From Heptranchias perlo (Eukaryota), in the NCBI RefSeq assembly GCF_035084215.1, contig NC_090351.1, positions 33,852,001-33,916,000 of the forward strand: a stretch of DNA of 64,000 bases, given 5' to 3'. Numbering within the stretch: position 1 is the stretch's first letter; every line of letters begins with the position of its first letter. A model generated the notes under the pieces. That model saw only the letters and a list, made by a program, of their open reading frames with translations. It did no database searches and was not told the origin of the DNA. Below, one piece after another: positions 14,960 to 59,800 of the stretch. The position numbers and the translations under genes are program-made.

Positions 14960-15007
14960 TCATCCTGCCACGTTGGCCGACCTGTGGTGATCTGATTCGT
15001 TGAGGAG
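14960..15007 (-). CDS. Gene B cytoplasmic exon LLNESDHHRSANVAG*
   Basis: paralogous to 75-122. Confidence 0.7.
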   Translation of the reverse strand, partial: LLNESDHHRSANVAG

Positions 15008-18000
15008 CTGAAAGTGAAAATATTTAATGCATCAGATTCATTGATATTGAGAAGTTTGCGTTATTTTACATGTCAGTTCTGAACAGAATTCTATCTGAAA
15101 CTGTTAACAAGTTGAGGAAAGGCCTGCGATAGACTGGAGCTGTGTTGAGATCACACTCCTCCCTCCCCCATCACCATTGCACGTGTGCTGGGAAAAGGTG
15201 TCAGTTGTGCCCCTTTTGCTGTGACACCATTTTCTCACATTCAACATGGGTTTTTCTGCAACCGTGACGGTGGACAGTTGACATCAGAAAACGGTTGACT
15301 TTATTAAATATATTTTAGATAGTCCAGTTGAGGTTCCCAGCAACAATAGAATTAGGTCTGTGTCTGAGCACCCTGGTGCTCGACTGGATAAACAAATCAG
15401 AATGGAATCTTTTCTTGACTGTATTAGTACAGCTTGGCTCAGTGGTAGCACTCTCATTTCAGATGTCAAAAGGTTGTGGGTTCAAGTCCCAGTCCAGGGA
15501 CTTCAGCACATAATCTAGGCTGGCACTTCAGCACTGTGCTGAGGGAGTGCTCTATTGTCAGATGAAACATTAATGGAGGGCCCCATCTGTTTGTTCAGGT
15601 GGACATAAAAGATTCCATGACACTATTTGAAGAAGAGCAAAGGAGTTCACCCAATATTCTGGCCAAAACAGATTATCCAGTCATTTATCTATCTCATCTG
15701 CTGTGTTTGGGACCTTTCTGTGTGCAAATTGTCTGCCACTTTTGTCTTCATAACAACAATAACACTTCAAAAGTAATTCATTGGATGCAAAGAGATTGGG
15801 ACGTCTTGAGGATATAAAAGAGTCTATATAAACGCAGGTTCTTTCTTTATTATATCTGTGACAAATATTTTTGAAAGAATTTTTGGAGTGTTTCATACAG
15901 TCCTTAATCCCTACCTTAGTTTTTCTCGTACACGTTGTGACTGAAACAGTACAAATCACCAGGAGAGCAAAGAGCACCCAGCGTAGCACACTCCACACAA
16001 TGTAACTGAGCAAAAGGGGAGAAATACAAAATCATTCACAAGAAACGGGACTGCTTTGTGTTTTAAACATTTATCTCCTGTTTACACTGTAATCTTAGTA
16101 TTTTGTATCAATGTAAAGCAGCAGAACCAAGGGACTTTAGCTGGGAAACTAAACTAGTGTTTGGCTTATGGAGGAAAGTCAACTTTGTGATCATTAGATA
16201 AAGGCCAAATGAAGCAAAGTTCATGAACATGTCCACAATGTGTAGCTATAAAGGCAAGGCACAATTTTATAATTGAGAACTTTATAAAAGTGACTGACCC
16301 TCTGCCTGGGGCCATGTAGCAGTGGTAATATGTCTCCTCAGGGATGAAAGGTTTATCACAATAACATCAACCTACAACTGCTCATCTGCACCTTCTTTCA
16401 GGCAATTGCTGAGCAGCTGGAAACAGTCAACCTTCCCGTTCTCTCAGTTTGGAAACAGTGTATAACATGGGTAAACTGAGAAGGTGAAAATGACGGAGAA
16501 TGCAAATGCCACTCCAGAATAGTGGAAGGCAAAACCAGCATTGCTGGGGTTTGGCAAGTACAACTCATCTCACGCCATGAGACTAGGTTTGGGGTGAAGT
16601 CATCATGGTGAATAATGCAAACAGCACCACCTGAGGGGTGGCAAAATGGAGGTGCTTATTTCTTATTCTTATTTTCCACCGACAAAAATAGCACCTTTGT
16701 TCGGAAGCTAACACAACAGCATGATGTAAATCCAGCCACCATTTCCATTATGATCAGTTATAGTCTGGAACAGTAAATATTTGTGAACCCTTGTGCCAAA
16801 TTTGTTAAAGAACATTTATTTTCTCAGATGCAAACAGTGCCAATCAAAACACAAGCAATGAGAACATTGTACCTTTTACTGGCAGATGTGGATCCTGAAG
16901 ATGTGGTTCGATTATCAGTGGAATTGATATTTTTACTTGTGGAACATGTGGTTTTTGGTGATACTGTTGAAAAATCTTCACAAGTATATACAGGTCCTAT
17001 TGAGGCAAGGGAATAAAGTTCAGATTCACCTGATTCTGACTTGTAGTCAACCTAGAGAACACTATTGTTAAATGGAACCTCAGTACTTGAGTAAAATCCT
17101 GGTTGGTATATTGGATTTGGATGCTTTCATTTCTGTGTAATTTCCCCTCTCTGGTAGCAAGGAGAGATGCTGCTAACACCTGGCAGCGGCCCATTTTTAG
17201 TGATATTTCAGTTATTTCCCCATATCCGAGTGTTTGCATTACAGAATTACTATTGGGACAGTTAAAGATCTCGGGTTGGTGGGTCTACAAACCAGATATT
17301 CCCTTTTTTGCCCCACGCAAACGTAAAGGAAAGTTAGAGCCAGGGAATGATCTCTGCCACCACCGGAAAGTGTATTCCTGGGCGCCTAGCAACCGCGATG
17401 CTGCCCTGGAGCGATGTCCTCAGTGGAATAGGAACATCAGCAGTGCATTGAGCTCATCGGGAAATATTAGACCAATAATTACTGTTGTCGATATTAGTAG
17501 ACAAGCAGTTAAAATTCGTAAGGCATTCCTCGTTTAAAAGAATGTTTCATTCAGAACAGCAGATAAAGGAATGTCACACGCACACATTAAACAGTCGCCT
17601 GCTAATACTGACAACGGTCAATTCTAGCCTCTTGGGGTCGGTTTCCTGAGCTTGCCAAGTGATGGGAAACCTCAGCCACCGGGAGTGGATATCGCAAATC
17701 AGGGACCGGCTCGCAAACAGATGCAATAGATATTAGTTTTAAAAATTCAGTTCCCATATTGTTTGTTTAAAGTAACACTTACCAATGCTGCTGATTCGAG
17801 CCACATAACTGCAGTTTTTCTCTGATCTGTTCCAGACTGACACATCAACCATTTCACTGGATTTTCCTCCATTATTATTTGAGGCTCTGCAGTAATATTG
17901 ATGATGAACTTGGGTGAAGGAAGAACATTGTAGATCCAGTTTATCAGATTCAGAGATCGTTAAATCTTCAGACGTGGCCTTTTTATACCATGTGTACCGA

Positions 18001-21000: not shown

Positions 21001-23478
21001 CAGACCTCTGCCCACTTCCTGGAAGACTCTGCACTGCTGCGGAGCCTCGGAAAATCAGTGCTGTATTTTTCTTCCCAGATGAAACATTGAACAGACATTT
21101 TAGTCGTGTATAATAAAGTATATCACTGAGAAAAGTACCGTAAGATATTTGTAGCCATAAGTTAAACCTTGGATCGATGCCAGATTGTTCAATACCACAG
21201 CTGTACCATCCGCTATCTCCCGAGCGAAGATCGTTCATAGTAACAACGAATATTCCTTCTCTCTTGTTATCTGTGATTGACATTCTTCCTCGCTGTCCAT
21301 CTTGCTCACTTGTTTTTACTAAAACTGAACAATCACTAGTCCAGCCATGACACAAGTGTTTCACATATGACCGGTACGTATGTTTGTCATAGTGACAGTC
21401 TATTGTGATCGCTCTTCCCACAACTCCATTTACATTTTTTTTTGCCCACAATGCACCTGAAACTGAGGAGACAACACTTCAGAAATTGAACAGGAAGTAA
21501 CTGCTAAATACAAACAGATGCATTTTAATAAGAACTTCCACTGTGTACAGAAGAATCTCTCCACTACGTCCATTAATACAGTGAATTACTTTTGAAGTGT
21601 AGTCACTATCGTTGAACAAGAACAGCAACAACAGCTTGCATTTATATAGCACCTATAACATAGAAACACAAGCTAAGATATAATCAAAAGTAAATGGATA
21701 CTGAGCTAAGGCAGGAGATATTTGGAGAGGTGTGTAACAGCTTGGTCAAAGAGGTGGGTTTTATGGAGGGTCTTAAAGGAGGAGAGGTGGAGGATTTCAT
21801 ACAGGGAATTTCACAATGTGGTGCCAAGGTGGTTGAAGGCAAACCATTCCCACTAATGGTGGGGCAAAGGTAGGGATCGATGCACAAAAGATCACAGTCA
21901 GCGGAAGGGAGATTTCGTGAGGGAGTTGGTGCGTAGGGCTGGAGGAGGTTACTCAAATAGTGAGGGGCCATTTCATGAAGGGATTTAAACACAAGGATGA
22001 AAGTTTGAAGTTTTGAGAGACCGAGAGCCAATGTCGGTCAGCAAGGACAGGGGTGATGGATGAGCGGGACCTGAAACAGGCAGCAGAATTTTGGATGAGT
22101 TGATGTTTATGGTGGGTGCAAGAGGGGAGGCAGGCCAGGAGAACATTGGAATAGTTCAATCTGGAGGCAACAAAGACATGGATGTGGGTTTCAGCAGCAG
22201 ACGGGTGGAAGTATGCAGACTTTGTAATGAACTTGATATCTACAGGAAAAGTGCTCCAGATTGTCTGTAAGATCAATGAGCAAGACCTCGAGGATATTAA
22301 TCACAGGATTATTCCCAGTGTCACATGGTAATTACTATAAGAATAGTAAGATAAGAGAAGTAATTTTGTGACTGGAGAGATGGTTCAGAAGAAAAGGGTT
22401 CATATTCCTGGCACCTTGGGACCAGGTGTGGAAGAGGAGCATCCTGTAGAGGACGGGAGGAGTTTACTTGAACAGCGCCAAGACCAATGGCTTTGCTGGG
22501 AGAGGAACTGATGCTGTGGGCAAAGAGTTTACTCCCAAATGGCAGGAGGGTGGTTAAAAATAAGCTGAAGAGGCACGAGGAAGAGGACGGAGGGCTGAGG
22601 ATATAGGATAGATAAAAGAGGGAAATGGGGAGGGGAAAGAGAACAGTTCAGAAAGAGGAAGGTTTGAAAAGAGGAAGATTGCCATAACAGAGGCGTGCTT
22701 CAGTTGAATGTTCAAAAAGTATTCTGCATAAAATTGGCAAGTTGAGGCACAAATATTTATGGGGAGGTTTGATATAATAGAATTAACAGACTCATGGCTT
22801 AGAGTCGGGTGGGACTGGGAGTTTAACATTGCTGGTTACAAAATAGATTAGTCCAAAATGGTGGCGGGGAGGCAGTATTAATCAGAAATTCCATTACAGC
22901 ATTAAATCATAAAGATGATATGGGGCTGAATCTACTTGGTTGGAGTAAAAGAAGAAGAAGAAAACGGTTACTTATTGGGAGAGTAATATCGACCAAACAG
23001 TGGGCGTCCTCTCCCAGTGAGGAACAGTGTCACTGACTGAGCTTCGTTAAACAATATTTCATCGGCTGTACTTTAAATAACGAAAACAGTTGCAAATTTG
23101 TGACATTTTCTATTTGAGGGATTATAACTACTGCAGTCTTCAGTGTATATTGGACATCAGATTATATTATAAAAGTCACTTTTTACAGATTAAATCTGGT
23201 TTCCTTTGCATTTTGATTGTTACTTTTGCAGCTTTATTTTCCACTCACAATTAAGAATGCATTTTCGTCTGGTGAATAATACAGTGAAAAAGAGATACAA
23301 GACTATATGCAAATGTACTTTTGCTGAGTATTTTGTGCCTTTACATTTCTCCAAATATTTAAACATCTCTGCTGTTTAAACCATGCACGAGACTTAAACT
23401 AACACTGATTATCTGAATATCCAGCTCTGGCGGTCACTCACCGGGCAGGGAACAAATGAGAAGAATCAGAATCCGCAT
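14960..23478 (-). CDS. Gene B: V-C2 activating receptor paralogue, 315 aa predicted; V-domain core YW changed to HL
   Basis: Exons 23442-23478, 21139-21462, 17783-18106, 16873-16996, 15915-16005, 14960-15007; intact GT-AG sites and frame. Confidence 0.87.
15430..15850 (+). mobile_element. tRNA-derived SINE (duplicated copy)
   Basis: paralogue of 545-960. Confidence 0.8.
15915..16005 (-). CDS. Gene B TM exon (Arg)
   Basis: YIVWSVLRWVLFALLVICTVSVTTCTRKTK; donor gtaggg. Confidence 0.88.
16873..16996 (-). CDS. Gene B stalk exon
   Basis: GPVYTCEDFSTVSPKTTCSTSKNINSTDNRTTSSGSTSASK. Confidence 0.85.
17783..18106 (-). CDS. Gene B C2-domain exon
   Basis: overlaps ORF 17739..18101; same splice sites as gene A. 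Confidence 0.92.
21139..21462 (-). CDS. Gene B V-domain exon
   Basis: within ORF 20807..21451; KHLCHGWTSDC, DSGWYSCGI. Confidence 0.92.
23442..23478 (-). CDS. Gene B signal-peptide exon
   Basis: identical to gene A leader; donor gtgagt. Confidence 0.85.
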
Positions 23479-29400: not shown

Positions 29401-29748
29401 ACTTCGGCAAATCCTTTACAAATGCAGACAGAGGAATATATAATCTGAAAAATTGACACAAAAAGTGTGACAAAAATGTATCAACAGGAAATCAGGTTGT
29501 GCAGACAGAAAGTGGCCACAGACATAAATTTTTAACACGATGTAGATAGATAGAAAAATAGCCACCAATTCGAAGCACGCAGCCATCATTTTAGTTTTGA
29601 TTTTTTTCTCCACTAATTTAATAGTCAAGTTCATTTAATGACCAATTCCATTTTTTATGTACATTTGGTGAAAAGGGAAAGCTGGATGAACAATGAATAT
29701 TTGATCAGGACACAAAATTCCATCAAGGTAGATGCAATCAGGAAATCT

Positions 29749-29796
29749 TCATCTTGCCACGTTGGCCGACCTGTGGTGATCTGATTCGTTGAGGAG
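29749..29796 (-). CDS. Gene C cytoplasmic exon
   Basis: LLNESDHHRSANVAR*. Confidence 0.7.
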   Translation of the reverse strand, partial: LLNESDHHRSANVAR

Positions 29797-32700
29797 CTGA
29801 AAGTGAAAATATTTAATGCATCAGATTCATTGATATTGAGAAGTTTGCGTTATTTTACATGTCAGTTCTGAACAGAATTCTATCTGAAACTGTTAACAAG
29901 TTGAGGAAAGGCCTGCGATAGACTGGAGCTGTGTTGAGATCACACTCCTCCCTCCCCCATCACCATTGCACGTGTGCTGGGAAAAGGTGTCAGTTGTGCC
30001 CCTTTTGCTGGAACACCATTTTCTCACATTCAACATGGGTTTTTCTGCAACCGTGACGGTGGACAGTTGACATCAGAAAACGGTTGACTTTATTAAATAT
30101 ATTTTAGATAGTCCAGTTGAGGTTCCCAGCAACAATAGAATTAGGTCTGTGTCTGAGCACCCTGGTGCTCGACTGGATAAACAAATCAGAATGGAATCTT
30201 TTCTTGACTGTATTAGTACAGCTTGGCTCAGTGGTAGCACTCTCATTTCAGATGTCAAAAGGTTGTGGGTTCAAGTCCCAGTCCAGGGACTTCAGCACAT
30301 AATCTAGGCTGGCACTTCAGCACTGTGCTGAGGGAGTGCTCTATTGTCAGATGAAACGTTAATGGAGGGCCCCATCTGTTTGTTCAGGTGGACAGAAAAG
30401 ATTCCATGACACTATTTGAAGAAGAGCAAAGGAGTTCACCCAATATTCTGGCCAAAACAGATTATCCAGTCATTTATCTATCTCATCTGCTGTGTTTGGG
30501 ACCTTTCTGTGTGCAAATTGTCTGCCACTTTTGTCTCCATAACAACAATAACACTTCAAAAGTAATTCATTGGATGCAAAGAGATTGGGACGTCTTGAGG
30601 ATATAAAAGAGTCTATATAAACGCAGGTTCTTTCTTTATTATATCTGTGACAAATATTTTTGAAAGAATTTTTGGAGTGTTTCATACAGTCCTTAATCCC
30701 TACCTTAGTTTTTCTCGTACACGTTGTGACTGAAACAGTACAAATCACCAGGAGAGCAAAGAGCACCCAGCGTAGCACACTCCACACAATGTAACTGAGC
30801 AAAAGGGGAGAAATACAAAATCATTCACAAGAAACGGGACTGCTTTGTGTTTTAAACATTTATCTCCTGTTTACACTGTAATCTTAGTATTTTGTATCAA
30901 TGTAAAGCAGCAGAACCAAGGGACTTTAGCTGGGAAACTAAACTAGTGTTTGACTTATGGAGGAAAGTCAACTTTGTGATCATTAGATAAAGGCCAAATG
31001 AAGCAAAGTTCATGAACATGTCCACAATGTGTAGCTATAAAGGCAAGGCACAATTTTATAATTGAGAACTTTATAAAAGTGACTGACCCTCTGCCTGGGG
31101 CCATGTAGCAGTGGTAATATGTCTCCTCAGGGATGATCACAATAACATCAACCTACAACTGCTCATCTGCACCTTCTTTCAGGCAATTGCTGAGCAGCTG
31201 GAAACAGTCAACCTTCCCGTTCTCTCAGTTTGGAAACAGTGTATAACATGGGTAAACTGAAAAGGTGAAAATGACGGAGAATGCAAATGCCACTCCAGAA
31301 TAGTGGAAGGCAAAACCAGCATTGCTGGGGTTTGGCAAGTACAACTCATCTCACGCCATGAGACGAGGTTTGGGGTGAAGTCATCATGGTGAATAATGCA
31401 AACAGCACCACCTGAGGGGTGGCAAAATGGAGGTGCTTATTTCTTATTCTTATTTTCCACCGACAAAAATAGCACCTTTGTTCGGAAGCTAACACAACAG
31501 CATGATGTAAATCCAGCCACCATTTCCATTATGATCAGTTATAGTCTGGAACAGTAAATATTTGTGAACCCTTGTGCCAAATTTCTTAAAGAACATTTAT
31601 TTTCTCAGATGCAAACAGTGCCAATCAAAACACAAGCAATGAGAACATTGTACCTTTTACTGGCAGATGTGGATCCTGAAGATGTGGTTTGATTATCAGT
31701 GGAATTGATATTTTTACTTGTGGAACATGTGGTTTTTGGTGATACTGTTGAAAATTCTTCACAAGTATATACAGGTCCTATTGAGGCAAGGGAATAAAGT
31801 TTAGATTCATCAGATTCTCACTTGTAGTCAACCATGAGAACACTACTCTTAAATGGAACCTCAGTGCTTGGAGTAAAATCCTGGTTGGTATATTGGATTT
31901 GGATGCTTTCATTTCTGTGCAATTTCCCCTCTCTGGTAGCAAGGAGAGATGCTGCTAACACCTGGCAGCGGCCCAATTTTATTGATATATCAGTTATTTC
32001 CCCATATCCAAGTGTTTGCAGTACAGAATTACTATTGGGACAGTTAAAGGTATCGGGTTGGTGGGACTCCAAACCAGATATTCCCTTTTTTGCCCCACGC
32101 AAACGTAAAGGAAAGTTAGAGCCAGGGAATGATCTCTGCCACCACCGGAAAGTGTATTCCTGGGCGCCTAGCAACCACGATGCTGCCCTGGAGCGATGTC
32201 CTCAGTGGAATAGGAACATCAGCAGTGCATTGAGCACATCGGGAAATATTGGACCAATAATTACTGTTGTCGATATTAGTAGACAAGCAGTTAAAATTCG
32301 TAAGGCGTTCCTCGTTTAAAAGAATGTTTCATTCAAAATAGCAGATAAAGGAATGTCAAACGCACACATTAAACAGTCGCCTGCTAATATTGACAACGGT
32401 CAATTCTAGCCTCTTGGGGTCGGTTTCCTGAGCTTGCCAAGTGATGGGAAACCTCAGCCACCAGGAGTGGATATCGCAAATCAGGGACAGGCTCGCAAAC
32501 AGATGCAATAGATATTAGTTTTAAAAATTCAGTTCCCATATTGTTTGTTTAAAGTAACACTTACCAATGCTGCTGATTCGAGCCACATAACTGCAGTTTT
32601 TCTCTGATCTGTTCAAGAGTGACACGTCAACCATTTCACTGGATTTTCCTCCATTATTATTTGAGGCTCTGCAGTAATATTGATGATGATCTTGGGTGAA

Positions 32701-35700
32701 GGAAGAACATTGTAGATCCAGTTTATCAGTGTCAGAGATGGTTAAATCTTCAGACGTGGCCTTTTTATACCATGTGTACCAAATGGGAAGGGACCCTTGG
32801 ACAGACTCACAGGAGACTGACACTGAGCCCCCAAAACATGAGGCATTTGCTGGTGATAAAAATCGAAGTACAGGAACAGACACAGATTCTGTGGGAAAGA
32901 AACAAACATTCAGACACTGACTGACTCTGCTTCTTGCACTGGATCCAAACTATCCCTGATCTTTAATGGGATGAGAGAGATTAAATAACTTTCAAAAGCA
33001 CCTGAAAGAAGAGGAACAATTGAGAAAGTTTTTGCTTTTTTTGAAAAAAAGCAGCATAATTGATCCAGATGGAAATAATCTTCCCATCATTTTTGCTTTG
33101 ATGAAAACCATCATGAATTTGCCAGGTTGGAGCAGTCTATGTGCTAGAAATTGGGATGTGTTTTGTTCCAATTCCGGGCGTAAAATGGTGCAACGTATAC
33201 CAATTGCTGGGCGTGAAGTCCTGTGCCTGATTTGCATTGGGGCATGCCCACTGCCCTATTGGTCGACACTATTTTTAGGCGTCCCTAGTGGTCGCCTGAA
33301 AGCAGCGTTGCTTTAATTTAAATATGCAAAGAACGGTCCTGGGCTTGTTTTAGCAAGCTTCTGCAAAATTTGTCAGAAACTAGGCAGAGCATACACCGAA
33401 TGATCTGACTGGTTTACCCAGTTCTACAGCGGCCTAACCAGAATTCCTTGAAGAGACCCGTGGAGATCACTGAAGAATCGCGACTGCGCTCGGTCCTCCA
33501 GCGTTTTCCTCCGGTGTCCAAGCAGGACGTTCCTGAGGGCCGCTGGTGAATAGACAGCAGCCTCAAATTTGATCCCCAATGTCGGCAGTAGCCAGCAGCT
33601 CGCCTCTATTATCGAAATGAGGCCAATTTCAGATGACCCTTAGGCCTCTGGCTTCTTGGGGCGCGCTTTCAGCCTGTCGCTTATTTTGGGCCCAGAAATG
33701 AGCCTAAAATAATTTCCAACCCTATTGTTTTCAGGTGGTTTGGTTGAATGTTGAATGCATTTCCAGAAATGGCCTGGCCCAGGTCCAGTTCGTACCAGAA
33801 CTCCCTCATATGGGAATTCTGCAACAAACATCAAAAAATCAAATGCTTTCCAATTTTCATTTGACTTCCGTGACAAAACGAGAATAAGCTTTCCTGCAAC
33901 TCAACCAGGCCCTGCCATTTTGGAACCTCACCAGCACATCTACATCTCCATGTCTCTCCATCCTGCGAGCAGCCTGAACTACCATGTCTAATATCAGAAC
34001 ATAGCAGGGCTCCAGATCAGGAGAGCAGCAATGATACTGGGGATGAGTCAATGTGAAAATCAGGGCTAACAATTTCTCTCTGTAGCAGGTTACCAGCCTC
34101 CAATGCTGTTTAATTGTTTGACACTCGAACATGAACTGGTTGGAGAAGGTCCGAGAAACCACAGCAGAATATGAATGCAAAAAATTGGAGATTTCTGTGT
34201 ATGTTTTGTGGCTTTAGACAGGGAGAGTAATTGTGACTGATTTCATCTAACCGCAGCTGAAAAGGAACTCTTTATCTCAATGTCAAGGGAGTAGCCAAAG
34301 CACAGAGGTGACCAGATTGACATTTTCAATGAGAATTGTCAGGCCTTCAGTGCTGTTGCTGCCACACCCTGTTCTCAGAAACTGATGAGGACAAAATTTG
34401 CTTGGTGACTGGACAGTCTCTCTTTGAAATGCTTATTCTTGCCAGCCTGTCCCTGAGCACTTTTCTACTCACCCACCCAAAATCAACAGGACGTGTAAAG
34501 GACGTAGGAGACTGTATTTAATATTCGATCCATCAGGAGGTTTGCTTGGGAAGAAGTAAATGGGCCATAATTTGCTGTGGCAGAGCATCTAACGACGTCT
34601 GGCGTTAGTTAGACTTGTCCTTGCTCGTTTAGGTTTCAAATTGTTTGTGGGGTAAGTTGCTGATAGTGTGAGCTGATAACGTCGCAGCGAGGGAAACAGG
34701 GCACCTGGGACCTGAGTGAACGGAGCAAGCAACCGTGTATCTCCCAGTCAGATTGAAGGATTGTGAAATAAACAGCACAAGGACTGAGAAAGAAGTGTAA
34801 ATGAGAGTGGGTGAATTCAATGTCCAATCAGATACAGAAAGAGAAATAAAGAGAGGGAAGGAAAGATTGGATTAAGAGAGAGAGAGAAAGGAAAAGTACA
34901 TTTTAAAATCTGCTTGCTCCGTTCACTCAGGTACCAGATGCCCTGTTTCCCTCGCTGCCACGTTATCAGCTCGCACTATCAGCAACTTACCCCAGAAACA
35001 ATTTGAAACCTAAACGAGCAAGGACAAGTCTAACCAACGGCAGACACCGTTGGATGCTCTGCCACAGCAAATTATGGCCCATTATCTTCCTCCCAAGCAA
35101 ACCTCCTGATGGATCAAATATTAAATAGTCTCCTACATCCTCTACACTCCTCTTGATTTTGGGTGGGTGAGAGAGGTTGCTTGGCAGTAATTAACACTTA
35201 TCACATTGTTAAAAGGGAACTTAGACTTGAAATGACTTGACTCAACTTTCTCTGTTGTGTTTAATTCGTATCTACCGTGCAAATACAGCAACTTCACACT
35301 GTTCAATGTATTTCAATGGTGAGGCACACAGTGAGATGCCCTTTTCGCAAAGCTAATGACAGAACGGTGCAACTCGGACAGCAACTTTTGGATGTTTGAG
35401 TTTAACCGCGTATCTGCCCCTCGCCTGATGTTGCTGCACCATTTGTGCATAAATAACGGCGAGCGCCATTAGTCTCATCGCTATTTGACAGTAAAATCTG
35501 GCCCAATGTGTCAACATTAATAAAGAGGCTTCTTTTGCCTTCAATGGAGTTTTCTAGGTTTTCAATTTTAGTTTAGCTCGCTTATAAATTTGAACTCCAT
35601 TACGCTGGCATAAGAAGCTCGCTGATTCTGTATGCCTCCCATCATATCAGGAAACATACAAAAATCTGTTACGCTCTTGTGGATTGATTCCATTTTTGGT

Positions 35701-38700
35701 GTTTTCTAGCCATTTATCCCATTAATGAACACTTGCTTCTTACTGCTTTTGTTCTTGTCTGTCCATTAGTTTTAGCCTGAATGTAAACATCTGACAGTGT
35801 GACATTTGATACAGTTCAGAGACAGGAAGATGTGTTGAGCATCCATGTGAGGTCTGGTGTAATACACTGTAGTTAAAGTAACTGTTGGTCCCATAATACG
35901 TGAAATTTTTGGTTGGATAGTTGGACAGGCCACGAATTGCGTGTGAGCAACACAAGTCGTATTTCCAGACCTCTGCCCACTTCCTGGAAGACTCTGCACT
36001 GCTGCGGAACCTCGGAAAATCAGTGCTGTATTTTTCTTCCTCGACAAAACTATGAACAGACATTTTAGTCGTGTATAATAAAGTATATCACTGAGAAAAG
36101 TACCGTAAGATATTTGTAGCCGTAAAGCAAACAATGGATCGTAGCCAGATTGTTCAATACCACAGCTGTACCATCCTCTATCTCCCGAGTGAAGATCCTT
36201 CATAGTAACAACGAATATTCCTTCTGTCTTGTTATCTGTGATTGACATTCTTCCTCGCTGTCCATCTTGCTCATTTGTTTTTACTAAAACTGAACAACTT
36301 CTAGACCAGCCATGACACCAATATTTCACATATGACCAGTACATATGTTTGTCATAGTAACAGTCTATTGTGATCGCTCTTCCCACAACTCCTGTTACAT
36401 TTTTTTTTGCGCACAATGCACCTGAAAGTGAAGAGACAACACTTCAGAAACAAAAACAGCAACAACAGCTTGCATTTCTAGAGCACCTATAACATAGAAA
36501 AACAAGCTAAGACATCATAAAAAATAAATGGACACTGAGCTAAGGCAGGAGATATTAGGAGAGGTGTGTAACAGCTTGGTCAAAGAGGTGGGTTTTTGTG
36601 GAGGGTCTTAAAGGAGGAGAGGTGGAGGATTTCATACAGGGAATTTCACAATGTGGCACCAAGGTGGTTGAAGGCACACCCATTCCCACTAATGGTGGGG
36701 CAAAGGTAGGGGGACAATGCACAAAAGACCACAGTCAGAGAAACAGAGAGTTCGGAAGGGTGAGTAGGGCTGCAGGGGGTTATATATCTAGGGAGGGGCC
36801 ATGTCATGAAGGGATTTAAACATAAGGATGAGAATTTTAAATCGGAAGTGTTCAGAGACCGAGAGCCAATGTAGGTCAGCAAGGACAGGGGTGACAGATG
36901 AGCGGGACCTGAAACGGGCAGCAGAATTTTGGATGAGTTGATGTTTATGGTGAGTGTAAGAGGGGAGGCAGGCCAGGAGAACATTGGAATAGTTCAATCT
37001 GGAGGCAACAAAGACATGGATGTGGGTTTCAGCAGCAGACGGGTGGAGGCGTGCAATGTTACGGAGGTGGAAGTAGGCAGACTTTGTAATGAACTTGATA
37101 TCTGCAGGAAATGAGCTACAGATTGTCTGTAAGATCAATGAGCAAGACCTCGAGGGTATTAATCACAGGATTATTCCCAGTGCCACATGGTAATCAGTAT
37201 AAGAATAGTAAGATAAGGGAAGTAATTTTGTGACTGGAGAGATGGTTTAGAAGCTCATAGGATCGAGGGAAAAGTACGGACTTGGTTAGGAAATTGGCTG
37301 AGCGAAAGGCGACAGAGAGTAGGGATAATGGGTAATTATTCACATTGGCAGGATGTGACTAGTGGAGATCTGTTTGGGGCCTCAATTATTCACAATATTT
37401 ATTAACGACTTAGATGAAGGCATAGAAAGTCTCATATCTAAGTTTGCCGATGACACAAAGATTGGTGGCATTGTAAGCAGTGTAGATGGAAACATAAAAT
37501 TACAAAGCGATATTGATAGATTAGGTGAATGGGCAAAACTGTGGCAAATGGAATTCAATGTAGACAAATGTGAGGTCATCCACTTTGGATTAAAAAAGGA
37601 TAGAACAGGGTACTTTCTAAATGGTAAAAAGTTTAAAACAGTGGATGTCCAAAGGGACTTAAGGGTTCAGGTGCATAGATCATTGAAGTGTCATGAACAG
37701 GTGCAGAAAATAATCAATAAGGCTAATGGAATGCTGGCCTTTATATCTAGAGGACTGGAGTACAAGGGGGCAGAAGTTATGCTGCAGCTATACAAAACCC
37801 TAATTAGACAGCACCTGGAGTACTGTGAGCAGTTCTGGGCACCGCACCTTCGGAAGGACATGTTAGCCTTGGAGGGAGTGCAGCGTAGGTTTACTAGAAT
37901 GATACCCGGACTTCAAGGATTAAGTTACGAGGAGAGATTACACAAATTGGGGTTGTATTCTCTAGAGTTTAGAAGGTTAAGGGGTGATCTGATCGAAGTT
38001 TATAAGATATTAAGGGGAACAGATAGGGTGGATAGAGAGAAACTATTTCCGCTGGTTGGGGATTCTAGGAGTAGGGGCACAGTCTAAAAATTAGAGCCAG
38101 ATCTTTCAGGAGAGAGATTAGAAAACATTTCTACAAACTAAGGGTGGTAGAAGTTTGGAACTCTCTTCCGCAGACGGCAATTGATACTAGCTCAATTGCT
38201 AAATTTAAATCTGCGATAGATAGGTTTTTGGCAACCAAAGGTATTAAGGGATATGGGCCAAAGGCAGGTATATGGAGCTAGATCACAGATCAGCCATGAT
38301 CTTATCAAATGGCGGAGCAGGCACGAGGGGCTGAATGGCCGACTTATGTTCCTATGTTCCTAAGAAAAGGGTTCAGATTCCTGGCAGTTTGGGATCAGGT
38401 CTGGAAGAGGAGCATCCTGTAGAGAACGGGAGGACTTTACTTGAACAGCAGTTAAGATTTGTATGGCATTCCTCGTTTAAAAGAATGTTTCTGTTGAAAT
38501 GTCAGATAAAGGAACGTCATGCACACATTAAACAGTTGACTGCTAATATTGACAACGGTCAATTCCAACCTCTTGGGGACACTTTTCTGAGCTTGCAGAA
38601 GTGATGGGAAACCTCAGACACCAGGAGTGGATATCACATATTAGGGACAGGCTCGCAAACAGATGGAATAGACATTAGTTTTAAAAATTCAGTTACCATA

Positions 38701-41700
38701 TTGTTTGTTTAAAGTAACACTTACCAATGCTGCTGATTTGATTCACATAACTGCAGTTTTTCTCTGATCTGTTGAAGTCTGACAATTTAAACATTTCACT
38801 GGATTTTCCTCCATTATTATTTGAGGCTCGACAGTAATATTGATGATGGTGTTGGGCGAAGGAAGGACAATATAGATCCAGTTGATTGGTGTCAGAGATC
38901 ATTAAATCTTCAGACGTGGCCTTTTTATACCATGTGTACCGAATGGGAAGGGACCCTTGGGCAGACTCACAGGAGACTGACACTGAGCCCCCAAAACATG
39001 AGGCATTTGGTGGTGATAAAAATCGAAGTACAGGAACAGACACAGATTCTGTGGGAAAGAAACAAACATTCAGACACTGACTGACTCTGCTTCTTGCATT
39101 GGATCCAAACTATCCCTGATCTTTAATGGGATCAGAGAGATTAAATAACTTTCAAAAGCACCTGAAAGAAGAGGAACAATTGAGAAAGTTTCTTTTTTTT
39201 TAAAACAGCAGCATAATTGATCCAGATGGAAATAATCGTCTCATCATTTTTGCTTTGATGAAACCCATCATGAATTTGCCAGGTTGGAGCAGTCTATGTG
39301 CTAGAAATTGGTATGTGTTTTGTTCCATTTCTGGGCGTAAAATGGTGCAACGCATACCAATTGCTGGGCGTGAAGTCCTGTGCCCGATTTGCATTGGGGC
39401 ATGCCCGCCGCCATATTGGTCGACTCTGTTTTTAGGCGTCCCTAATGGTCGCCTGAAAGCAGCGTTGCATTAATTAAAAATGCAAACAAGGGTCTTGGGC
39501 TTGTTTTAGGAAACTTCTGCAAAATTTTTGAGAAACTAGGTGGAGCGTACACCGTGAATGATCTGACTGGTTTACCCAGCTCTACAGCGGCCTAACCAGA
39601 GTTCCTTAAAGAGACCCATTGAGATCACTGAAGAATCGCGACTGCGCTCGGTCCTCCAGCGTTTTCCTCCGGTGTCCAAGCAGGACGTTCCTGAGGGCCG
39701 CTGGTGAATAGACAGCAGGCTCAAATTAAATCCCCGATGTCGGCAGTAGCCAGCAGCTCGCCTCTATTATCAAAATGAGGCCAATTTCAGATGAGCCTCA
39801 GGCCTCTGGCTTCTTGGGGCGCGCTTTCAGCCTGTCGCTTATTTTGGGCCCAGAAATGAGCCTAAAATAATTTCCACCCCTATTGTTTTCAGGTGGGGGT
39901 TTGGTCGAATGTTGAATGCATTTCCAGGAATGGCCTGGCCCAGGTCCAGTTTGTAACAGAACTCACTAATATGGGAATTCTGCAACCAACATCGAAAAAT
40001 CAAATGCTTTCCAATTTTCATTTGACTTCCGTGACAAAACCAGAATAAGCTTTCCTGTAACTCAGCCAGGCCCTGCCATTTTGGAACCTCACCAGCACAT
40101 CTACATCTCCATGTCTCTCCATCCTGCGAGCAGCCTGAACTACCATGTCTAATATCAGAACATAGCAGGGCTCCAGATCAGGAGAGCAGCAATGATACTG
40201 GGGATGAGTCAATTTGAAAATCAGGGCTAACAATTTCTCTCAGTAGTAGGTTACCAGCCTCCAATGCTGTTTAATTGTTTGACACTCGAACATGAGCTAG
40301 TTGGAGAAAGTCCGAGAAACACAGCAGAATATGAGTGCAAAAAATTGGAGATTTCTGCAAATGTTTTGTGGATTTAGACAGGGAGAGTAATTGTGATTGG
40401 TTTCAGCTAACTGCAGCTAAAAAGGAACCCTTTATCACTGTGTCAAGAGAATAGCCAAAGCACAAAGGTGACCAGATTGACATTTTCAATGAGAATTGTC
40501 AGGCCTTCAGTGCTGTTGCTGCCACACCCTGTTCTCAGAAACTGATGAGGACAAAATTTGCTTGGTGACTGGACAGTCTCTCTTTGAAATGCTACTGCTT
40601 GCCGACCTGTCCCTGAGCACTTCCCTACTCACCCACCCAGATCCATTGAAAAATCAACAGGTCATGTGGAGGATATAGGAGATTGTATTTAATATCAGGA
40701 GGTTTGATTGGGAGGAAGATAATGGGCCATAATTTGCTTTGCAGGGCATCTAATGGCGTCTGCCGTTAGTTCGACTTGCCCTTGCTCGTTTAGGTTTCAA
40801 ATTGTTTGCGGGTATGTATCTACCGTGCAAATACAGCAACTTCATGCCGTTGAATGTATTTCGATGGTGCGGCAGACAGCAAGATGCCCTTTTTCTGAAG
40901 CTAAGGGCAGAACGGCGTAACTTGGACAGCAACTTTTGGATTTCTGCGTTTAACCAGGCATCTGCCTGAATTTGCTGCACCATTTGCGCATAAATAATGG
41001 TGAGCGTCATTAGTCTCACCGCTATTTTGGCAGTAAAATCTGGCCCAACGTGACAACATGAATAAAGAGGCTTCTTTTACCATCAAGAGAGTGATCTAGC
41101 TTTTCAATTTTAGTTTAGCTCGCTTGTAAAGTTGAACTGTATTGTGCTGACCTAAGTATCTGGTTGATTCTGTATGCCTCCCATCATATCAGGAAACCTA
41201 CAAAAATCTGTTATGCTCTTGTGGATTGATTCCATTTTTGGTGTTTTCTCGGCATTTATCCCATTAATGACTATTTGCTTCTTACTGCTTTTGTTATTGT
41301 CTTTCTATTAGTTTTAGCCTGAATGTAAACATCTGACAGTGTGAAATTTGATACAGTTCAGACATAGGAAGATGTGTTGAGCATCCATGTGAGGTCTGGT
41401 GTAATACACTGTCGTTAAAGTAACTGTTGGTCCCATAATACGTGAATTTTTTGGTTGGATAGTTGGACAGGCCACGAATTGCGTGTGAGCAACGCGAGTC
41501 GTGTTTCCAGACCTCTGCCCACTTCCTGGAAGACTCTGCACTGCTGCGGAGCCTCGGAAAATCAGTGCTGTATTTTTCTTCCCCGATGAAACATTGAACA
41601 GACATTTTAGTCGTGTATAATAAAGTATATCACTGAGAAAAGTACCGTAAGATATTTGTAGTCGTAAGTTAAACCTTGGATCGATGCCAAGTTGTTCAAT

Positions 41701-44098
41701 ACCACAGCTGTACCATCCTGTATCTCCCGAGCGAAGATCCTTCATAGTAACAACGAATATTCCTTCTCTCTTGTTATCTGTGATTGACATTCTTCCTCGC
41801 TGTCCATCTTGCTCACTTGTTTTTACTAAAACTGAACATTCAGTAGTCCAGCCATGACACCAATATTTCACATATGACCGGTACGTATGTTTGTCATAGT
41901 GACAGTCTATTGTGATCGCTCTTCCCACAACACCTCTGACATTTTTTTTTGCCCACAATGCACCTGAAACTGAGGAGACAACACTTCAGAAATTGAACAG
42001 GAAGTAACTGCTAAATACAAACAGATACATTTTAATAAGAACTTCCACTGTGTACAGAAGAATCTCTCCACTACGTCCATTAATACAGTTGAATTCCTTG
42101 TAGTTTGTGATGAAAGAAAGAACATTAATTTCGTGCCTTATCACATCCTCACGATGTCCTAAAGCACTTCCCAGCCAGTGAATTACTTTTGAAGTGTAGT
42201 CACTATCGTTAAACAAGAACAGCAACAACAGCTTGCATTTATATAACACCGATAACATAGAAACACAAGCTAAGATATAATCAAAAGTAAATGGACACTG
42301 AGCTAAGGCAGGAGATATTAGGAGAGGTGTGTAACAGCTTGGTCAAAGAGGTGGGTTTTAAAGAGGACCTTAAAGGAGGAGAGGTGGAGGATTTCATACA
42401 GGGAATTTCACAATGTGGTCAAAGGCACACCCATTCCCACTAATGGTGGGGCAAAGGTAGGGATCGATGCACAAAAGACCACAGTCAGAGGAACGGATAG
42501 TTCGTGAGGGGGGGTGGTGAGTCGGGCTGAAGGAGGTTACTCAAATAGTGACGGGCCATGTCATGAAGGAATTTAAAGGATGAGAGTTTTAGATATGACA
42601 TGTTGAGTGACCGAGAGCCAATGTAGGTCAGCAAGGACAGGGGTGATAGATGAGCGGGACCTGAAACGGGCAGCAGAATTTTGGATGAGTTGATGTTTAT
42701 GGTGGGTGCAAGAGGGGAGGCAGGCCAGGAGAACATTGGAATAGTTCAATCTGGAGGCAACAAAGACATGGATGTGGATTTCAGCAGCAGACGGGTGGAA
42801 GTAGGCAGACTTTGTGATGAACTTGATATCTGCAGGAAAAGTGCTCCAGATTGTCTGTAAGATCAATGAGCAAGACCTCGAGGGTATTAATCACAGGATT
42901 ATTCCCAGTGCCACATGGTAATCAGTATAAGAATAGTAAGATAAGAGAAATAATTTTCTGACTGGAGCGATGGTTCAGAAGAAAAGGGTTCATATTCCTG
43001 GCACCTTGGGACCAGGTGTGGAAGAGGAGCATCCTGTAGAGGACGGGAGGAGTTTACTTGAACAGCACCAAGACCAATGGCCTTGCTGGGAGAGGAACTG
43101 ATGCTGTGGGCAAAGAGTTTACTCCCAAATGGCAGGAGGGTGGTTAAAAATAAGCTGAAGAGGCACGAGGAAGAGGACGGAGGGCTAAGGATATAGGTTA
43201 GATAAAAGAGGGAAAGAGAACAGATCAGAAAGAGGAAGGATTGAAAAGAGGAAGATTGCCATAACAGAGGCATGCTTCAGTTGAATGTTCATAAAGTGTT
43301 CTGCATAAAATTGGGAAGTTGAGGCGCAAATATTTATGGGGAGGTTTGATGTAATAGAATTAAGAGACTCATGGCTTAGAGTCGGGTGGGACTGGGAGTT
43401 TAACATTGCTGGTTACAAAATAGATTAGTCCAAAATGGTGGAGGGGAGGCAGTATTAATGAAAAATGCCATTACAGCACTAAATCATAAAGATGATATGG
43501 GGCTGAATCTACTTGGTTAGAGTTAAAGAAGAAGAAGAAAACGGTTACTTATTGGGAGAGTAATATCGACCAAACAGTGGGCGTCCTCTCCCAGTGAGAA
43601 ACAGTGTCACTGACAGAGCCTCGTTAAACAATATTTCATCGGCTGTACTTTAAATAACAAAAACAGTTGCAAATTTGTGACATTTTCTATTTGAGGGATT
43701 ATTACCACTGCAGTCTTCAGTGTATATTGGACATCAGATTATATTATAAAAGTCACTTTTTACAGATTAAAACTGGTTGCCTTTGCATTTTGTTTGTTAC
43801 TTTTGCAGCTTTTAAAAAAATTAAATGGAACCTTTATTTTCCACTCACAATTAAGAATGCATCTTCGTATATATTGATAAATATTTGTCTGGTAAATAAT
43901 ACTGTCAAAAAGAGATATAAGACTATATGCAAATGTACTTTTGCTGAGTATTTTGTGCCTTTACATTTCTCCAAATATTTAAACATTTCTCCTGTTTAAA
44001 CCATACACGAGACTTAAACTAACACTGATTATCTGAATATCCAGCTCTGGCAGTCACTCACCGGGCAGGCAACAAATGAGAAGAATCAGAATCTGCAT
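29749..44098 (-). CDS. Gene C: four-Ig-domain V-C2-V-C2 activating receptor, 529 aa predicted
   Basis: Exons 44062-44098, 41646-41969, 38725-39048, 36104-36421, 32565-32888, 31654-31777, 30704-30794, 29749-29796. One leader and one stalk/TM/tail serve two V-C2 cassettes; all Ig exons are phase 1-1 and open. Confidence 0.78.
30219..30640 (+). mobile_element. tRNA-derived SINE (duplicated copy)
   Basis: paralogue of 545-960. Confidence 0.8.
30704..30794 (-). CDS. Gene C TM exon (Arg)
   Basis: same sequence as gene B TM exon. Confidence 0.88.
31654..31777 (-). CDS. Gene C stalk exon
   Basis: GPVYTCEEFSTVSPKTTCSTSKNINSTDNQTTSS... Confidence 0.85.
32565..32888 (-). CDS. Gene C C2 domain 2
   Basis: overlaps ORF 32521..32883. 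Confidence 0.92.
34468..35171. repeat. ~262-bp inverted duplication (34468-34731 vs 34911-35171)
   Basis: right arm is the reverse complement of the left arm; absent from the other cassette copies. Confidence 0.9.
36104..36421 (-). CDS. Gene C V domain 2 (internal, leaderless)
   Basis: overlaps ORF 35772..36416; acceptor cactttcag; 318 nt, phase 1-1; begins GALCAKK. Confidence 0.85.
37254..38361 (+). mobile_element. 5'-truncated CR1 LINE, specific to gene C
   Basis: RT ORF 37362..38087 (KFADDTK, HLEYCEQFWAP); (TATGTTCC)n tail; empty site cagaagaaaaggg in the other copies; AAG duplicated. Confidence 0.92.
38725..39048 (-). CDS. Gene C C2 domain 1
   Basis: overlaps ORF 38693..39043; intact acceptor and donor gtaagt. 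Confidence 0.9.
41646..41969 (-). CDS. Gene C V domain 1
   Basis: overlaps ORF 41314..41958; KYWCHGWTTEC, DTGWYSC. Confidence 0.92.
44062..44098 (-). CDS. Gene C signal-peptide exon MQILILLICCLP
   Basis: ATG at 44098, donor gtgagt. Confidence 0.85.
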
Positions 44099-49885: not shown

Positions 49886-50840
49886 CTCGTCGTATCTCCT
49901 CTGCCCCTCACTGTAAGGATTCTGTGTGAAAGCTCGAAGAGTATCAGTTCACTTCGTGCCATGCTGCCCCACATCATTGGATCATCTTACTTCACTTAGA
50001 GAAGATGGTTTCTGGGAATCCTTCAATATTTCAACTTGTTCACCTGAATGAAGTCCTCACAGGTTCCTTTTAAACAAACCTGAGCGCCTTCATAGCATTG
50101 CTGTTTCAAAAAGTCTCTTCTCGGGTGCCTGTCTCTGTGTATTTTATCTCCCACTATCCACAACCAGAAAATAAAAGCCTACCAGACCTTCTACTGAGCA
50201 CCTGGGACCAACAACTCCCCAAACAAATGGGTGTGATGTGTTTATTGATTATCAAGATAACCTAATGAATTGCTTATTATTTATAGTCTATGAGGAAACA
50301 ACACCAAAGTTAATTCATTTGCACTTTAACTACTCATCATTTCAAACCTTCCCCCCTTTTTATTAACATGATGCCTGAAAACACATTTAAAGCAGCTAAT
50401 TTTCAAAACCTTTTCTGCGAAAAATGGCCAAAAAGTCCTGATTAGGGAATTGGATATATTCTTGTAAAGGAAAAATTTGCAGGGCTGTGGGGAAAGAGCA
50501 GAGAAGTGGGATTAATTGGATGGCTCTTTCAAAGAGCCGGCACAGGCACGGTGGGCTGAATGGCCTCCTTCTGTGCTTTTTGATTCTATGACAGTGACAC
50601 CACCCTATTCTCAATCTCTGAGTGCCTGAGCTGACACCAGGAGAAAGTGTTCCAATTCCCCAGCAGTAACATCCCTCAGCAAGAAATTACAATTTAACAT
50701 GAGGGGATTTTTCATTATGACTTGAATTAGAAATAAAATTTGGCAAATTTTTGATTGAGCTGTCTTACTTTCATAATGATATTAAACAGTTTTTAAAAAA
50801 AATATTGTTCAACAATTAACACAAAATCCATAATCCTTAC

Positions 50841-50932
50841 CTTAATTTTTCTTTGTGCAACACGTGACTAAAATAGCACAAATCAGCAGAAGTGCAAAGA
50901 GCGTCCAACGTAGCCAATTCCAGATAATGTAG
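50841..50932 (-). CDS. Gene D TM exon (Arg), stop codon 1 nt before donor
   Basis: [29 protein letters not shown]; acceptor ttttgtccag, donor gtaagg; 92 nt vs 91 in paralogues. Confidence 0.85.
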
Positions 50933-56900: not shown

Positions 56901-59800
56901 GGTTCACTGATCGTGGAACACAATTCCATCTCTTGAGGCTATACTTGTCTAAAAATTTAAAGTTGAATTAACTTTTAAAACATTGCAAAATTACAAAATA
57001 CCTCACTCTTAGTGGCAAGAGAACCGGTTGTGGACCTAGCTGAGGGACACAGGCGTCAAATTCCCATGGACGTTCTCCCGATAGTCCATTGTAATTTCCA
57101 TGAAAGATCCACAGAAACCTGGGAGATGCTTTACCGGGGTTTCCCGTGGATCTTCCACAGAAATTACGGAGGATGATTGTGAGAATCCCCGCAAAAGTAC
57201 GCCTCCACAGTTTTAGAGGCGTAACATGGCTACCTATAGTGAGGTGACTGATAGTTAATGATCGTGGTAAGTATAAATTAACAGGCATTACTCAGGTGTG
57301 ACAGAGTGGTGACAAAATCGTGACACAATAAGCAAGCGTGACAACGGGTAGTGCATGTAGCTACAAAATAATATACACAACAAAATAATAGGGTTGTAAC
57401 ATAAAGTTTAAATTGAATGGTGGTTAATACCACACAGAGAACAAAACATTGTTCTTTCTTTATGAATAAGGAACATCAAAAAGTGATAATTGGGTTCTAC
57501 TATAAGTGCTAATATCATTGTTGTGTAATCATATTTAATGAAGTTTATATCAATACACGTCCTTATTTGTGGAGCTAATGTTTCCATTCAAAATTAAACT
57601 TTTACAAAATTAAAACAGTTCACATAAAAAAAGAATATAAGACAACATCTGTGTCCAGCTGACAATTGTAAATTTGGATTTTCCCATGTACATGCAATCA
57701 CTGAAGACTTTGCACACATTTTCCTTTACAGATTTTAGATGCAGTATCAATAATAATCAAATTAGATTGTGTAACTTTTAGCTATTAAAGATGTGAATAC
57801 CAAGTTTGATTTTACTCACATGTTTGCAGTGTTAACAATTAAATCAAATTGACTTTAATGCTGTAAATATGCCAGCAAATAAGTGCAAATGATTTGTTTT
57901 ATTTTAGTGTTCAGTTAATGAGGGAAAAATGATTTTAAGTGAAAAAACACTTACCAGTATTGTGGATTTGCACCAAATACCTACAGTTCTTCTCTGCTGC
58001 CTTTCCGAGTGACACTTTAACCATTTCACTGGATATTGTGCCATTAGTATTTGAGGCGCTGCAGTAATATTGCTGATCCTCAGAGATATGCTTGCACTGT
58101 AGATCCAGGTTATTAGAGCGGGAAATCTCTGCATCTTTACTTTGCATCTTTTTATACCAAGTATAAGTGATAGGGAGGGATCCATGGAGTGACTCGCACG
58201 AGACTGAGACTTCAACGCACGGAGCATTTGGGGGGTACACAAATTTAAGAAGTGGCTGAGAAACGACTTCTGTCAGGAGGGGGGGGTGGTGGAGAAAGAG
58301 TCTGTTAGACAGAGTTGGCAACTAGCAGCGAGTGAGGTTAATATCCTGCATCACATAATATATCTGGCTCTGAGGGAGCTGTTTGTGCTGTTTACTTTTC
58401 TTGAAATAAAAAAGTTACCAAAGCCCATTCCAATTTTTTGTTAAAGTTTCTGCGCATTAAGAATAAAGCACTTAGATATTGTGCCCCAGTCAATCGTCTC
58501 ATGAATCCTAATCCGAGACTGCTTCTTTAGCATAATCTTCCTTCCACAAAGCCTCGCAATGACCTCTTCCCAAGTCATTTAAATACGGACCCAATGGGAT
58601 TTCAGATTTTTTGCTGGTGGTGTGGGGACCACAGGCTGGCCTGACAAAAAACCTTTCCGGATGTTCCCTGGCTGGTGGGCCCATCTTCAAATGGCAACTG
58701 ATTTTTCTTGGAGTGATTACCGTTTGAATATGGCGTTGGACCCACACGTAGCCCTGTATGGCAAGTTCGACCGCTTTGTCAGGAGTACTTACCACTGGCT
58801 GTATAGGAGGCTTAGCTGGCGGAATTTCCTGACACGCCCACAAAAGTGACATTGGAACGTAGGGAGGGAGGGAGGGCAGAAAAACCACCCACCCCGCCCC
58901 TCCCGCTTTGGAAGTTCTTAGGGATCAAGTAAGCAGCAGAAAGCAGTCCGGCCTAATTTCCTGCAGCCCCCCCCCCTCCCCCCCCCTCCCCCAACAACAC
59001 ACAAACACCGCAGCAAGGGAAACCCCAAGGAAATTCACACCCTACGGAGGCCAAAACTGAACACAGTTCTCCAGGCATAGCCTCACCAAGGCCAGATACA
59101 ACTTTAACATCACCTCCTTTGACTTATCTGTCACATCCTTCACTACACATTGCAACATTTTATTTGCTTTCTTGACTGCCTGTGAACACTGAACTGACAT
59201 CCATTAAACCCCCCCCCCACCCCCCCCCCACAACCCAAGATCTTTTTCTGGAAGTATAATTTAACCTCATACTCCACATTATTGCTTCTTTGACGTAATC
59301 ACATGACTTTACATTTATCCAGGTTGAATTCTACCTGCTCCCTCTCAGCACATTGACCTACCTGTCCAGGTCCCTTGGACATCTTGGACAATGTTTTCAC
59401 TTAAAGGACAGAATAATCAAAAACAAAGGTTAATAGTAGAGTATAATAAGAATAAATGGCTCAGATAAAGTACCTTCGGATATTTGTAGATACACAGCAA
59501 ACATTGAATCGAATCCAGTCCTTTCGATACCACAGTTGTACCATCCTGTATCTGCTGAACTAAGATTCTTCATAGTAACAACAAATATCCCTTGTGTCTT
59601 GTCATCTTTAATTGATACTTTTCCTTGCCGCCCAAACTGCATATTTGTATCAACTATCATATTACAACCAGTGCGATACCACTTATGACACCAATATTTC
59701 TTGTATGACTCGTATGTCTGGTTGTTGTAATGGCAGTATATTGTAAGTGTTCTTCCCACAACACCTGTTACATTTTCTTCTGCCCACAAGGTACCTGAAA
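50842..59800 (-). CDS. Gene D: divergent V-C2 receptor paralogue (5'-partial; leader not found in window), nearly tailless
   Basis: Exons 59474-59800 (V), 57955-58269 (C2), 53338-53470 (stalk), probable 52531-52623, and 50841-50932 (TM, TAA at 50842-50844). Confidence 0.78.
52146..52366 (+). mobile_element. Short Penelope-like element insertion with 15-bp TSD
   Basis: TACATTGATTCAATG at 52131-52145 and 52367-52381; contains hammerhead core and AATAAA. Confidence 0.75.
52284..52320 (+). ncRNA. Minimal hammerhead ribozyme motif (Penelope type)
   Basis: TTAC-CTGACGA-A-GGAG-gaagc-CTCC-GAAAGCTT-GTGA: conserved core boxes, stem II GGAG/CTCC, stem I TTAC/GTGA, palindromic AAGCTT. Confidence 0.65.
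52531..52623 (-). CDS. Gene D candidate extra stalk exon (phase 2-2, 93 nt)
   Basis: acceptor tataccttccag, donor gtacat, open frame [32 protein letters not shown]. Confidence 0.5.
53338..53470 (-). CDS. Gene D stalk exon
   Basis: [44 protein letters not shown]; the YTCEDF motif matches gene B; phase 1-2. Confidence 0.82.
53940..54577 (-). mobile_element. CR1 LINE 3' fragment
   Basis: ORF 54035..54562 [30 protein letters not shown]. Confidence 0.92.
54830..56262 (+). mobile_element. Degenerate L2 LINE
   Basis: [44 protein letters not shown]; frameshifted; (GTT)n tail. Confidence 0.85.
56320..56560. repeat. Degenerate ~60-70-bp tandem repeat (TATTCAGGGCA-AT-rich)
   Basis: TATTCAGGGCA at ~56386, ~56454, ~56515, each followed by T(A/T)AATT-rich sequence. 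Confidence 0.55.
57955..58269 (-). CDS. Gene D C2-domain exon
   Basis: [35 protein letters not shown]; acceptor ctcctgacag, donor gtaagt; 315 nt. Confidence 0.9.
59474..59800 (-). CDS. Gene D V-domain exon
   Basis: [37 protein letters not shown]; acceptor cttcttag, donor gtactt; 327 nt. Confidence 0.92.

Follow-up and report, generated by a model that had tools for sequence, protein, structure and literature searches.

The minus strand of the window analysed here, 64,000 nucleotides of contig NC_090351.1 of the sevengill shark Heptranchias perlo, carries a section of an array of tandem immunoglobulin-superfamily genes, and one of these, gene C, arose by an old in-frame fusion inside the array. 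On its sequence, gene C is a new, MDIR5-like member of the MDIR (CD300/pIgR-like) family. Its internal V exon (V2) carries two base changes, a lost splice acceptor and a Trp-to-Cys replacement (Cys232), which an earlier note on this DNA had taken for an adaptation that restores a disulfide loop. There is about an even chance that gene C is an MDIR5-like receptor, formed by in-frame fusion of tandem V-C2 modules, in which both changes are near-neutral and not a selected repair.

A two-module gene in a tandem array

The genes of the array consist of leader, V, C2, stalk and transmembrane (TM) exons. A survey of the window and 160 kb of neighbouring DNA, in a genome of 3.25 Gb, gave 11 V exons, 11 C2 exons and nine leaders of the array type, with V-C2 and V-C2-V-C2 genes side by side. 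Gene C has the layout leader-V-C2-V-C2-stalk-TM (Table 1), and all of its Ig exons are symmetric (phase 1-1). Pfam recognised V-set and Ig_2/Ig_3 domains in the array exons. The exact gene C product is the sevengill shark NCBI model XP_067863711.1 (P0014), and our own exon join is the same as this model over the 483 codons checked. Contigs from sequencing runs were also compared; the RNA status of the runs called RNA is guessed, as none is recorded as RNA and the tissue is unstated, and the contigs show presence, not absence.

Table 1. Features of gene C and of its fused intron (window positions).
Feature	Position	Strand	Remarks
Leader exon	44062..44098	-	MQILILLICCLP, phase 1; joins into P0014
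V1 exon	41646..41969	-	Upstream AG used (VSGALW); join at 41969 in a paralogue contig (run guessed RNA)
C2a exon, FcRL-like C2	38725..39048	-	Exon join and domain search
C2a A' Cys138	38998-38996	-	In C2a exon
C2a E-F Cys181	38869-38867	-	In C2a exon
C2a KNC Cys219	38755-38753	-	In C2a exon
Fusion junction	38447..38450	.	C2-stalk intron joined to leader-V intron, 3-4 nt microhomology
CR1-like LINE	37254..38361	+	5'-truncated (~1.1 kb); frameshifted RT fragment; insertion into fused intron
End of ~218 bp deletion in leader-V-type intron	36448..36450	.	~29 nt upstream of V2 exon
Lost upstream acceptor, cag to cac	36428..36430	-	Unique among array V exons
V2, internal V-set exon	36104..36421	-	Open frame; four canonical Cys and new Cys232
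TGC, new Cys232	36411..36413	-	TGG in 10 other V exons
C2b exon	32565..32888	-	Exon join
Stalk exon	31654..31777	-	YTC Cys448 and second Cys460
Transmembrane exon	30704..30794	-	Arg-bearing (WSVLRWVLF)

MDIRs are described as a multigene family of activating and inhibitory skate receptors similar to CD300, TREM and pIgR (PMC3031540). Two of their features are present here: V2 has a CD300/TREM/pIgR-type V domain with an extra C-C' Cys pair (YWCHGWSRSC), and the number of Ig domains is variable, with one to 10 modules in the relatives. The identity to the cloned skate receptors is 54% for MDIR5 (528 columns), 56% for MDIR3 and 59% for MDIR2. The cDNA-derived MDIR5 of the clearnose skate (ABC86800.1, P0058) shares the complete layout, including the Arg of the TM and the short tail. 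However, the A' Cys that gene C retains has been lost from the internal C2 of MDIR5 (SRLGG), and where gene C reads GALC, the internal V of MDIR5 still reads VSGALW; unlike in MDIR5, the duplication in gene C is local to its own shark array. MDIR2 and MDIR3 (P0126 and P0037) have V and C2 domain types in common with gene C, but longer tyrosine-motif tails and other domain counts, and the internal C2-V join of MDIR3 keeps the KNC-equivalent Cys and has lost the A' Cys.

More distantly, CD300 (CMRF35), pIgR and TREM have the V domain with the second C-C' Cys pair, the best solved relatives being pIgR and CD300lf, but they have neither the FcRL-like C2 nor a cysteine-clamped hairpin, and pIgR consists of V domains only. 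The NCBI label 'pIgR-like' does not fit: gene C alternates V and FcRL-like C2 domains instead of having a V-only ectodomain. For the C2 exon, the nearest relative of solved structure is the C2 of FCRL5, whose aligned stretches lack a Cys at both A' and E-F and whose post-G segment did not align. The ESM Atlas returned generic Ig clusters only, and a literature search on gene C or MDIR disulfides, with most subscription papers outside its coverage, found no paper.

Arg-bearing TM exons were found in nine units and in gene D, and the model of the last unit (P0062) has a long tyrosine-motif tail. With its different TM and this tail, the last unit stands apart from the nine near-identical Arg units, a contrast that resembles a paired activating/inhibitory cluster. 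The second Cys of the array stalk, Cys460 (TTCS/TPCS), is absent from the Heterodontus relative P0064 and may be usable for homodimer formation.

The array holds several further peculiarities. The NCBI models P0008 and P0009 were rejected as single proteins: each strings together three tandem genes, although leader, stalk and TM exons are present separately in every unit, and the merged region covers 33753000-33875000 of the contig, including window positions 1-23500. Gene D (50840-50920 and 59474-59800) is a diverged paralogue, with a V that is ~73% identical at the DNA level. Its TM exon runs into a stop (TKKN*) just ahead of the donor, and a simple pattern found no leader in the 44 kb upstream. 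The V exon of gene B (21139-21456) has KHLC instead of the conserved KYWC, and a contig of run X1, guessed to be RNA, matches at the compared positions.

Two private base changes at the start of V2

On the minus strand, V2 reads ...tcttcac-tttcag|GT GCA TTG TGC, whereas all 10 other V exons, four in the window and six upstream in the genome, read cag/tag-tttcag|GT...TGG. The claim that both changes are confined to the internal V was borne out across the 11 V exons of the array. A sequencing or assembly error was ruled out, since two DNA runs carry both changes: contigs of runs X2 and X5, which cover 36372/36383-36447, show zero differences, and paralogue contigs alongside have TGG. Both runs were made from a single sample, which may be that of the assembly itself, and so they bear on assembly error and say nothing on fixation. 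C2a ends with ...AGC ATT G|gt, and its join with V2 gives KNCSYVNQISSI-GALC (C-x12-C); the exon join and P0014 both agree with the earlier description of this splice and of a first C2 without its stalk.

The replaced Trp had been taken for the end of the signal peptide. This was probably wrong, as the position aligns with residue 5 of pIgR D1 chains and is placed in strand A of the V domain by the P0014 model (within strands 17-19 and 231-233), and the Trp is probably part of that strand. It is found at this site in 232 of 272 V domains of all contexts. In a contig from a run guessed to be RNA, the leader of a paralogue is spliced to the upstream AG (44062 to 41969).

The proposal that the acceptor loss is an adaptation of an internal V was not supported. 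The upstream AG form was kept at 77 of 84 C2-V junctions, with the short form at six, and the short acceptor form was also used by seven of 71 N-terminal V models. A spacer of 14 residues, the modal one of the stalk (92/101), would result from use of the upstream AG; after the AG loss it is 12. The loss is therefore no help to the new Cys, because the upstream AG would give the exact stalk register, and this shift favours near-neutral change.

The Cys itself is not enriched in internal V domains: it occurs at the Trp site in one of 112 C2-preceded V domains and in one of 117 N-terminal ones, which again suits near-neutral change. Gene C is the only case of a junction Cys in 100 C2-V junctions, and none of the 99 others converged on it. 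A TGC in leader-bearing V exons, which would speak against the adaptive claim, was found in part: the skate leader-V model P0100 (LP-DALCAEK), in which no C2 precedes the V, combines the short acceptor form with the Cys, at the level of a gene model only. On the other hand, the prior chance that drift produced a TGG to TGY change on the gene C branch is as low as 1.4-2.5%, and the new Cys landed close to the register of the stalk Cys, behind a C2 in which the A' Cys is retained. This weighs against near-neutrality and for a bond of Cys232.

The C2 cysteine that probably loses its partner

Which Cys of C2a could use a new partner was approached with 135 homologous proteins (the Conger protein was left out), which gave 265 C2 domains, of which 238 were distinct and 236 were counted; two rows from the merged models P0008 and P0009 were dropped, and two A' states were corrected by hand. 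Beyond the core pair, the C2 has three extra Cys, at A' (138), E-F (181) and post-G in KNC (219), and C2a retains all five. Among C2 domains that precede a Cys-bearing stalk (n = 104), the A' Cys was kept in 95, the E-F Cys in 104 and the KNC Cys in 100. For the C2 domains that lead into a further Ig domain (n = 105, not counting gene C), the corresponding counts were 43, 104 and 104. The other 26 domains end without a stalk Cys. In 36 of the 55 proteins that contain both kinds of C2, the A' Cys is absent internally and kept in the last C2, and the cDNA-derived MDIR3 and MDIR5 show this pattern inside a single protein, with the KNC and E-F Cys kept. The loss is mostly batoid (57 of 72 Ig-followed C2, versus five of 33 in sharks and chimaera). 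A Fisher p of 3e-15 for the covariation of A' and stalk Cys ignores kinship and is no measure of significance; phylogenetic contrasts gave about three independent ones on well-supported branches, in the predicted direction and not significant, which limits the weight of the covariation.

Since the A' Cys drops out without a stalk while the KNC Cys stays, Cys138, and not Cys219, is the likely partner of the stalk Cys. The KNC Cys likely pairs with the E-F Cys and would need no stalk Cys. This goes against the pairing of KNC with a stalk-type Cys that the earlier note assumed, and with it against a bond between Cys232 and Cys219 that would restore the KNC-stalk loop. Such a bond has in its favour that C-x12-C is like C-x14-C and that both Cys flank a predicted hairpin. 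However, the stalk-less C2 domains that keep their KNC and E-F Cys include those of the cloned skate receptors, and the model of paralogue P0062 has strands at 218-225 and 231-237 after G (pLDDT 76-80 at 211-230 and 65 at 231-240) and no regular A' strand. As a hairpin, these strand limits would place Cys219 opposite approximately residue 237 and Cys234 opposite 222, so that the two would not face each other. We consider the Cys219-Cys232 bond very improbable.

In ordinary members, the post-G segment would form a hairpin with two disulfides, one between the E-F and KNC Cys and the other between the A' and stalk Cys. The loss of the stalk would then orphan Cys138 and not Cys219. Batoids have mostly dropped the A' Cys and most shark internal C2 models have it, and in gene C the new Cys232 may have taken up Cys138 as its partner. 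A wider scheme seems to us rather doubtful as a whole: in it, the stalk supplies the second disulfide of the MDIR C2 hairpin trans-exon, and each module that became internal met the orphaning of its A' Cys in another way, with batoids dropping this Cys, galeomorph sharks perhaps matching it with an odd-Cys V, and gene C re-bonding it.

Taken alone, the last step, in which Cys232 replaces the stalk Cys by a selected bond to the orphaned Cys138 and re-clamps the hairpin with a loop two residues shorter, is a possibility that we hold tentatively. It agrees with the covariation of the A' and stalk Cys, with the complete Cys set of C2a, and with spacers of 12-15 before the stalk Cys in other models. 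Against it are the lack of convergence at the other junctions, the same change in the leader-bearing P0100, and the acceptor loss, which took the Cys off the modal register. The AlphaFold model of P0014 (18-row alignment; mean pLDDT 64) cannot decide, as its pLDDT is below 50 at 121-142 and 212-228, the two segments that flank the junction.

Near-neutral change is favoured by the 28 of 33 Ig-followed C2 of sharks and chimaera that keep the A' Cys without a junction Cys. However, many of these A'-keeping models may be mergers of tandem genes. The multi-module models of other sharks may share the artefact of P0008 and P0009. In addition, 16 internal V sequences of one type, from seven galeomorph genera, have a single C' Cys and always stand behind an A'-keeping C2. 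These A'-keeping C2 domains precede an odd-Cys V that is maybe their own fix, and other lineages thus seem to restore Cys parity by different routes, which counts against drift and for the Cys138-Cys232 bond. The constant association of this V with an A'-keeping C2 hints that Cys parity matters, and the odd Cys could form an inter-domain or inter-chain disulfide. This conserved galeomorph V type (in P0003, P0004, P0006, P0007, P0026, P0034, P0035, P0042, P0083, P0088, P0092 and P0094) retains three Cys, a short deletion (YW-SRQC) having removed the first of its C-C' pair.

Age, selection and expression of the fused exons

The first 278 bp of the C2a-V2 intron correspond to the C2-stalk intron of one unit, after which the sequence changes to the leader-V intron of a different unit. 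The LINE was inserted 90 bp past this switch point and is 94.3% identical to a longer copy ~114 kb upstream. No leader or stalk remnant was found between C2a and V2. Compared with the nearest array copy, gene C diverges by 0-1% over most 3'-end windows, by ~2% at C2b and by mostly 1-5% in the 5' part, and the divergence rises to 2-12%, mostly 6-12%, over 34200-39000. C2a-V2 is the most diverged part of the gene relative to the array, and the introns flanking the internal exons differ from it by 6-11%. Because the divergence peaks at the centre and is low at the ends, the fusion junction appears to be old and beyond the passage of gene conversion. The 3' end is a very recent exchange, while the centre is up to 12% different; positions 29700-31800, compared with 14900-17000, are 99-100% identical to array copies, mostly of gene B.

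Neutral simulations over such divergence left the two internal exons open, with their GT/AG intact, in 2-14% of cases (with an assumed branch length and uncorrected survivor bias), and the neutral chance of intact frames, splice dinucleotides and all canonical Cys and Trp was 0.3-7%, also subject to survivor bias. Because neutral simulations rarely keep both exons open, the intact exons give modest support to a functional fusion, and their survival despite the divergence of the introns is also in line with the Cys138-Cys232 bond. At the level of residues, no purifying signal was found: the pN/pS of V2 and C2a against the paralogues is 1.3-3.1, and 13 of 14 V2-private codons and 15 of 17 C2a-private codons alter the amino acid. 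These ratios favour near-neutral change, with the reservation that several V2-private residues are the same as in outgroups, so part of the pN/pS reflects change in the array. A cluster of replacements lies beside the fused junction in the G strand of C2a (38780-38795; EMFKLSDF versus EMVDVSVW/LL in paralogues). The claim that the fusion is expressed and selected thus stands in part: the fusion exists, keeps the reading frame and was probably under selection at one time, but selection on the new Cys is unproven.

Among the contigs from runs guessed to be RNA, those of paralogues are spliced, and the pieces identical to V2 in the window are either unspliced across the donor (X1) or a 92-nt piece of the exon (X6). 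The 38725-36421 joint of C2a and V2 was not among the 15 joints listed of 539, and no loose contig end was found at 36421; neither result counts either way. A word-based and therefore weak search found no short proteins containing the C2a-V2 junction.

It could also be that most transcripts skip the internal C2a-V2 cassette, or that gene C is little expressed, and that the changes drift without consequence for the protein. Symmetric Ig exons can be skipped in frame, the spliced contigs that were compared (runs guessed RNA) are of the paralogue type, the V2-identical pieces are only unspliced or short, and the intron before V2 has taken up the LINE and the 218-bp deletion, with a pN/pS of at least 1 in the exons. 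However, the frames, splice dinucleotides and canonical Cys and Trp are intact, the acceptor tract of V2 has 14 pyrimidines in 17 positions, compared with 11 in 17 for the upstream AG that V1 uses, the layout is identical to that of a cloned skate cDNA (MDIR5), and contigs drop rare variants. Skipping is therefore regarded as unlikely.

If the near-neutral reading is correct, Cys232 is a single private substitution in a family of fast-evolving shark receptors whose two-module layout is known from a skate cDNA. If Cys232 bonds Cys138, gene C would be an example of a protein that repairs its disulfide pattern after exon shuffling, and if the two-disulfide scheme is true, it would provide a dated example, from nature, of an exon-module duplication that was followed by the gain of a compensatory disulfide. 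The covariation of the A' and stalk Cys predicts a disulfide map for the MDIR C2 domain, for which a PDB sequence search returned distant relatives only.
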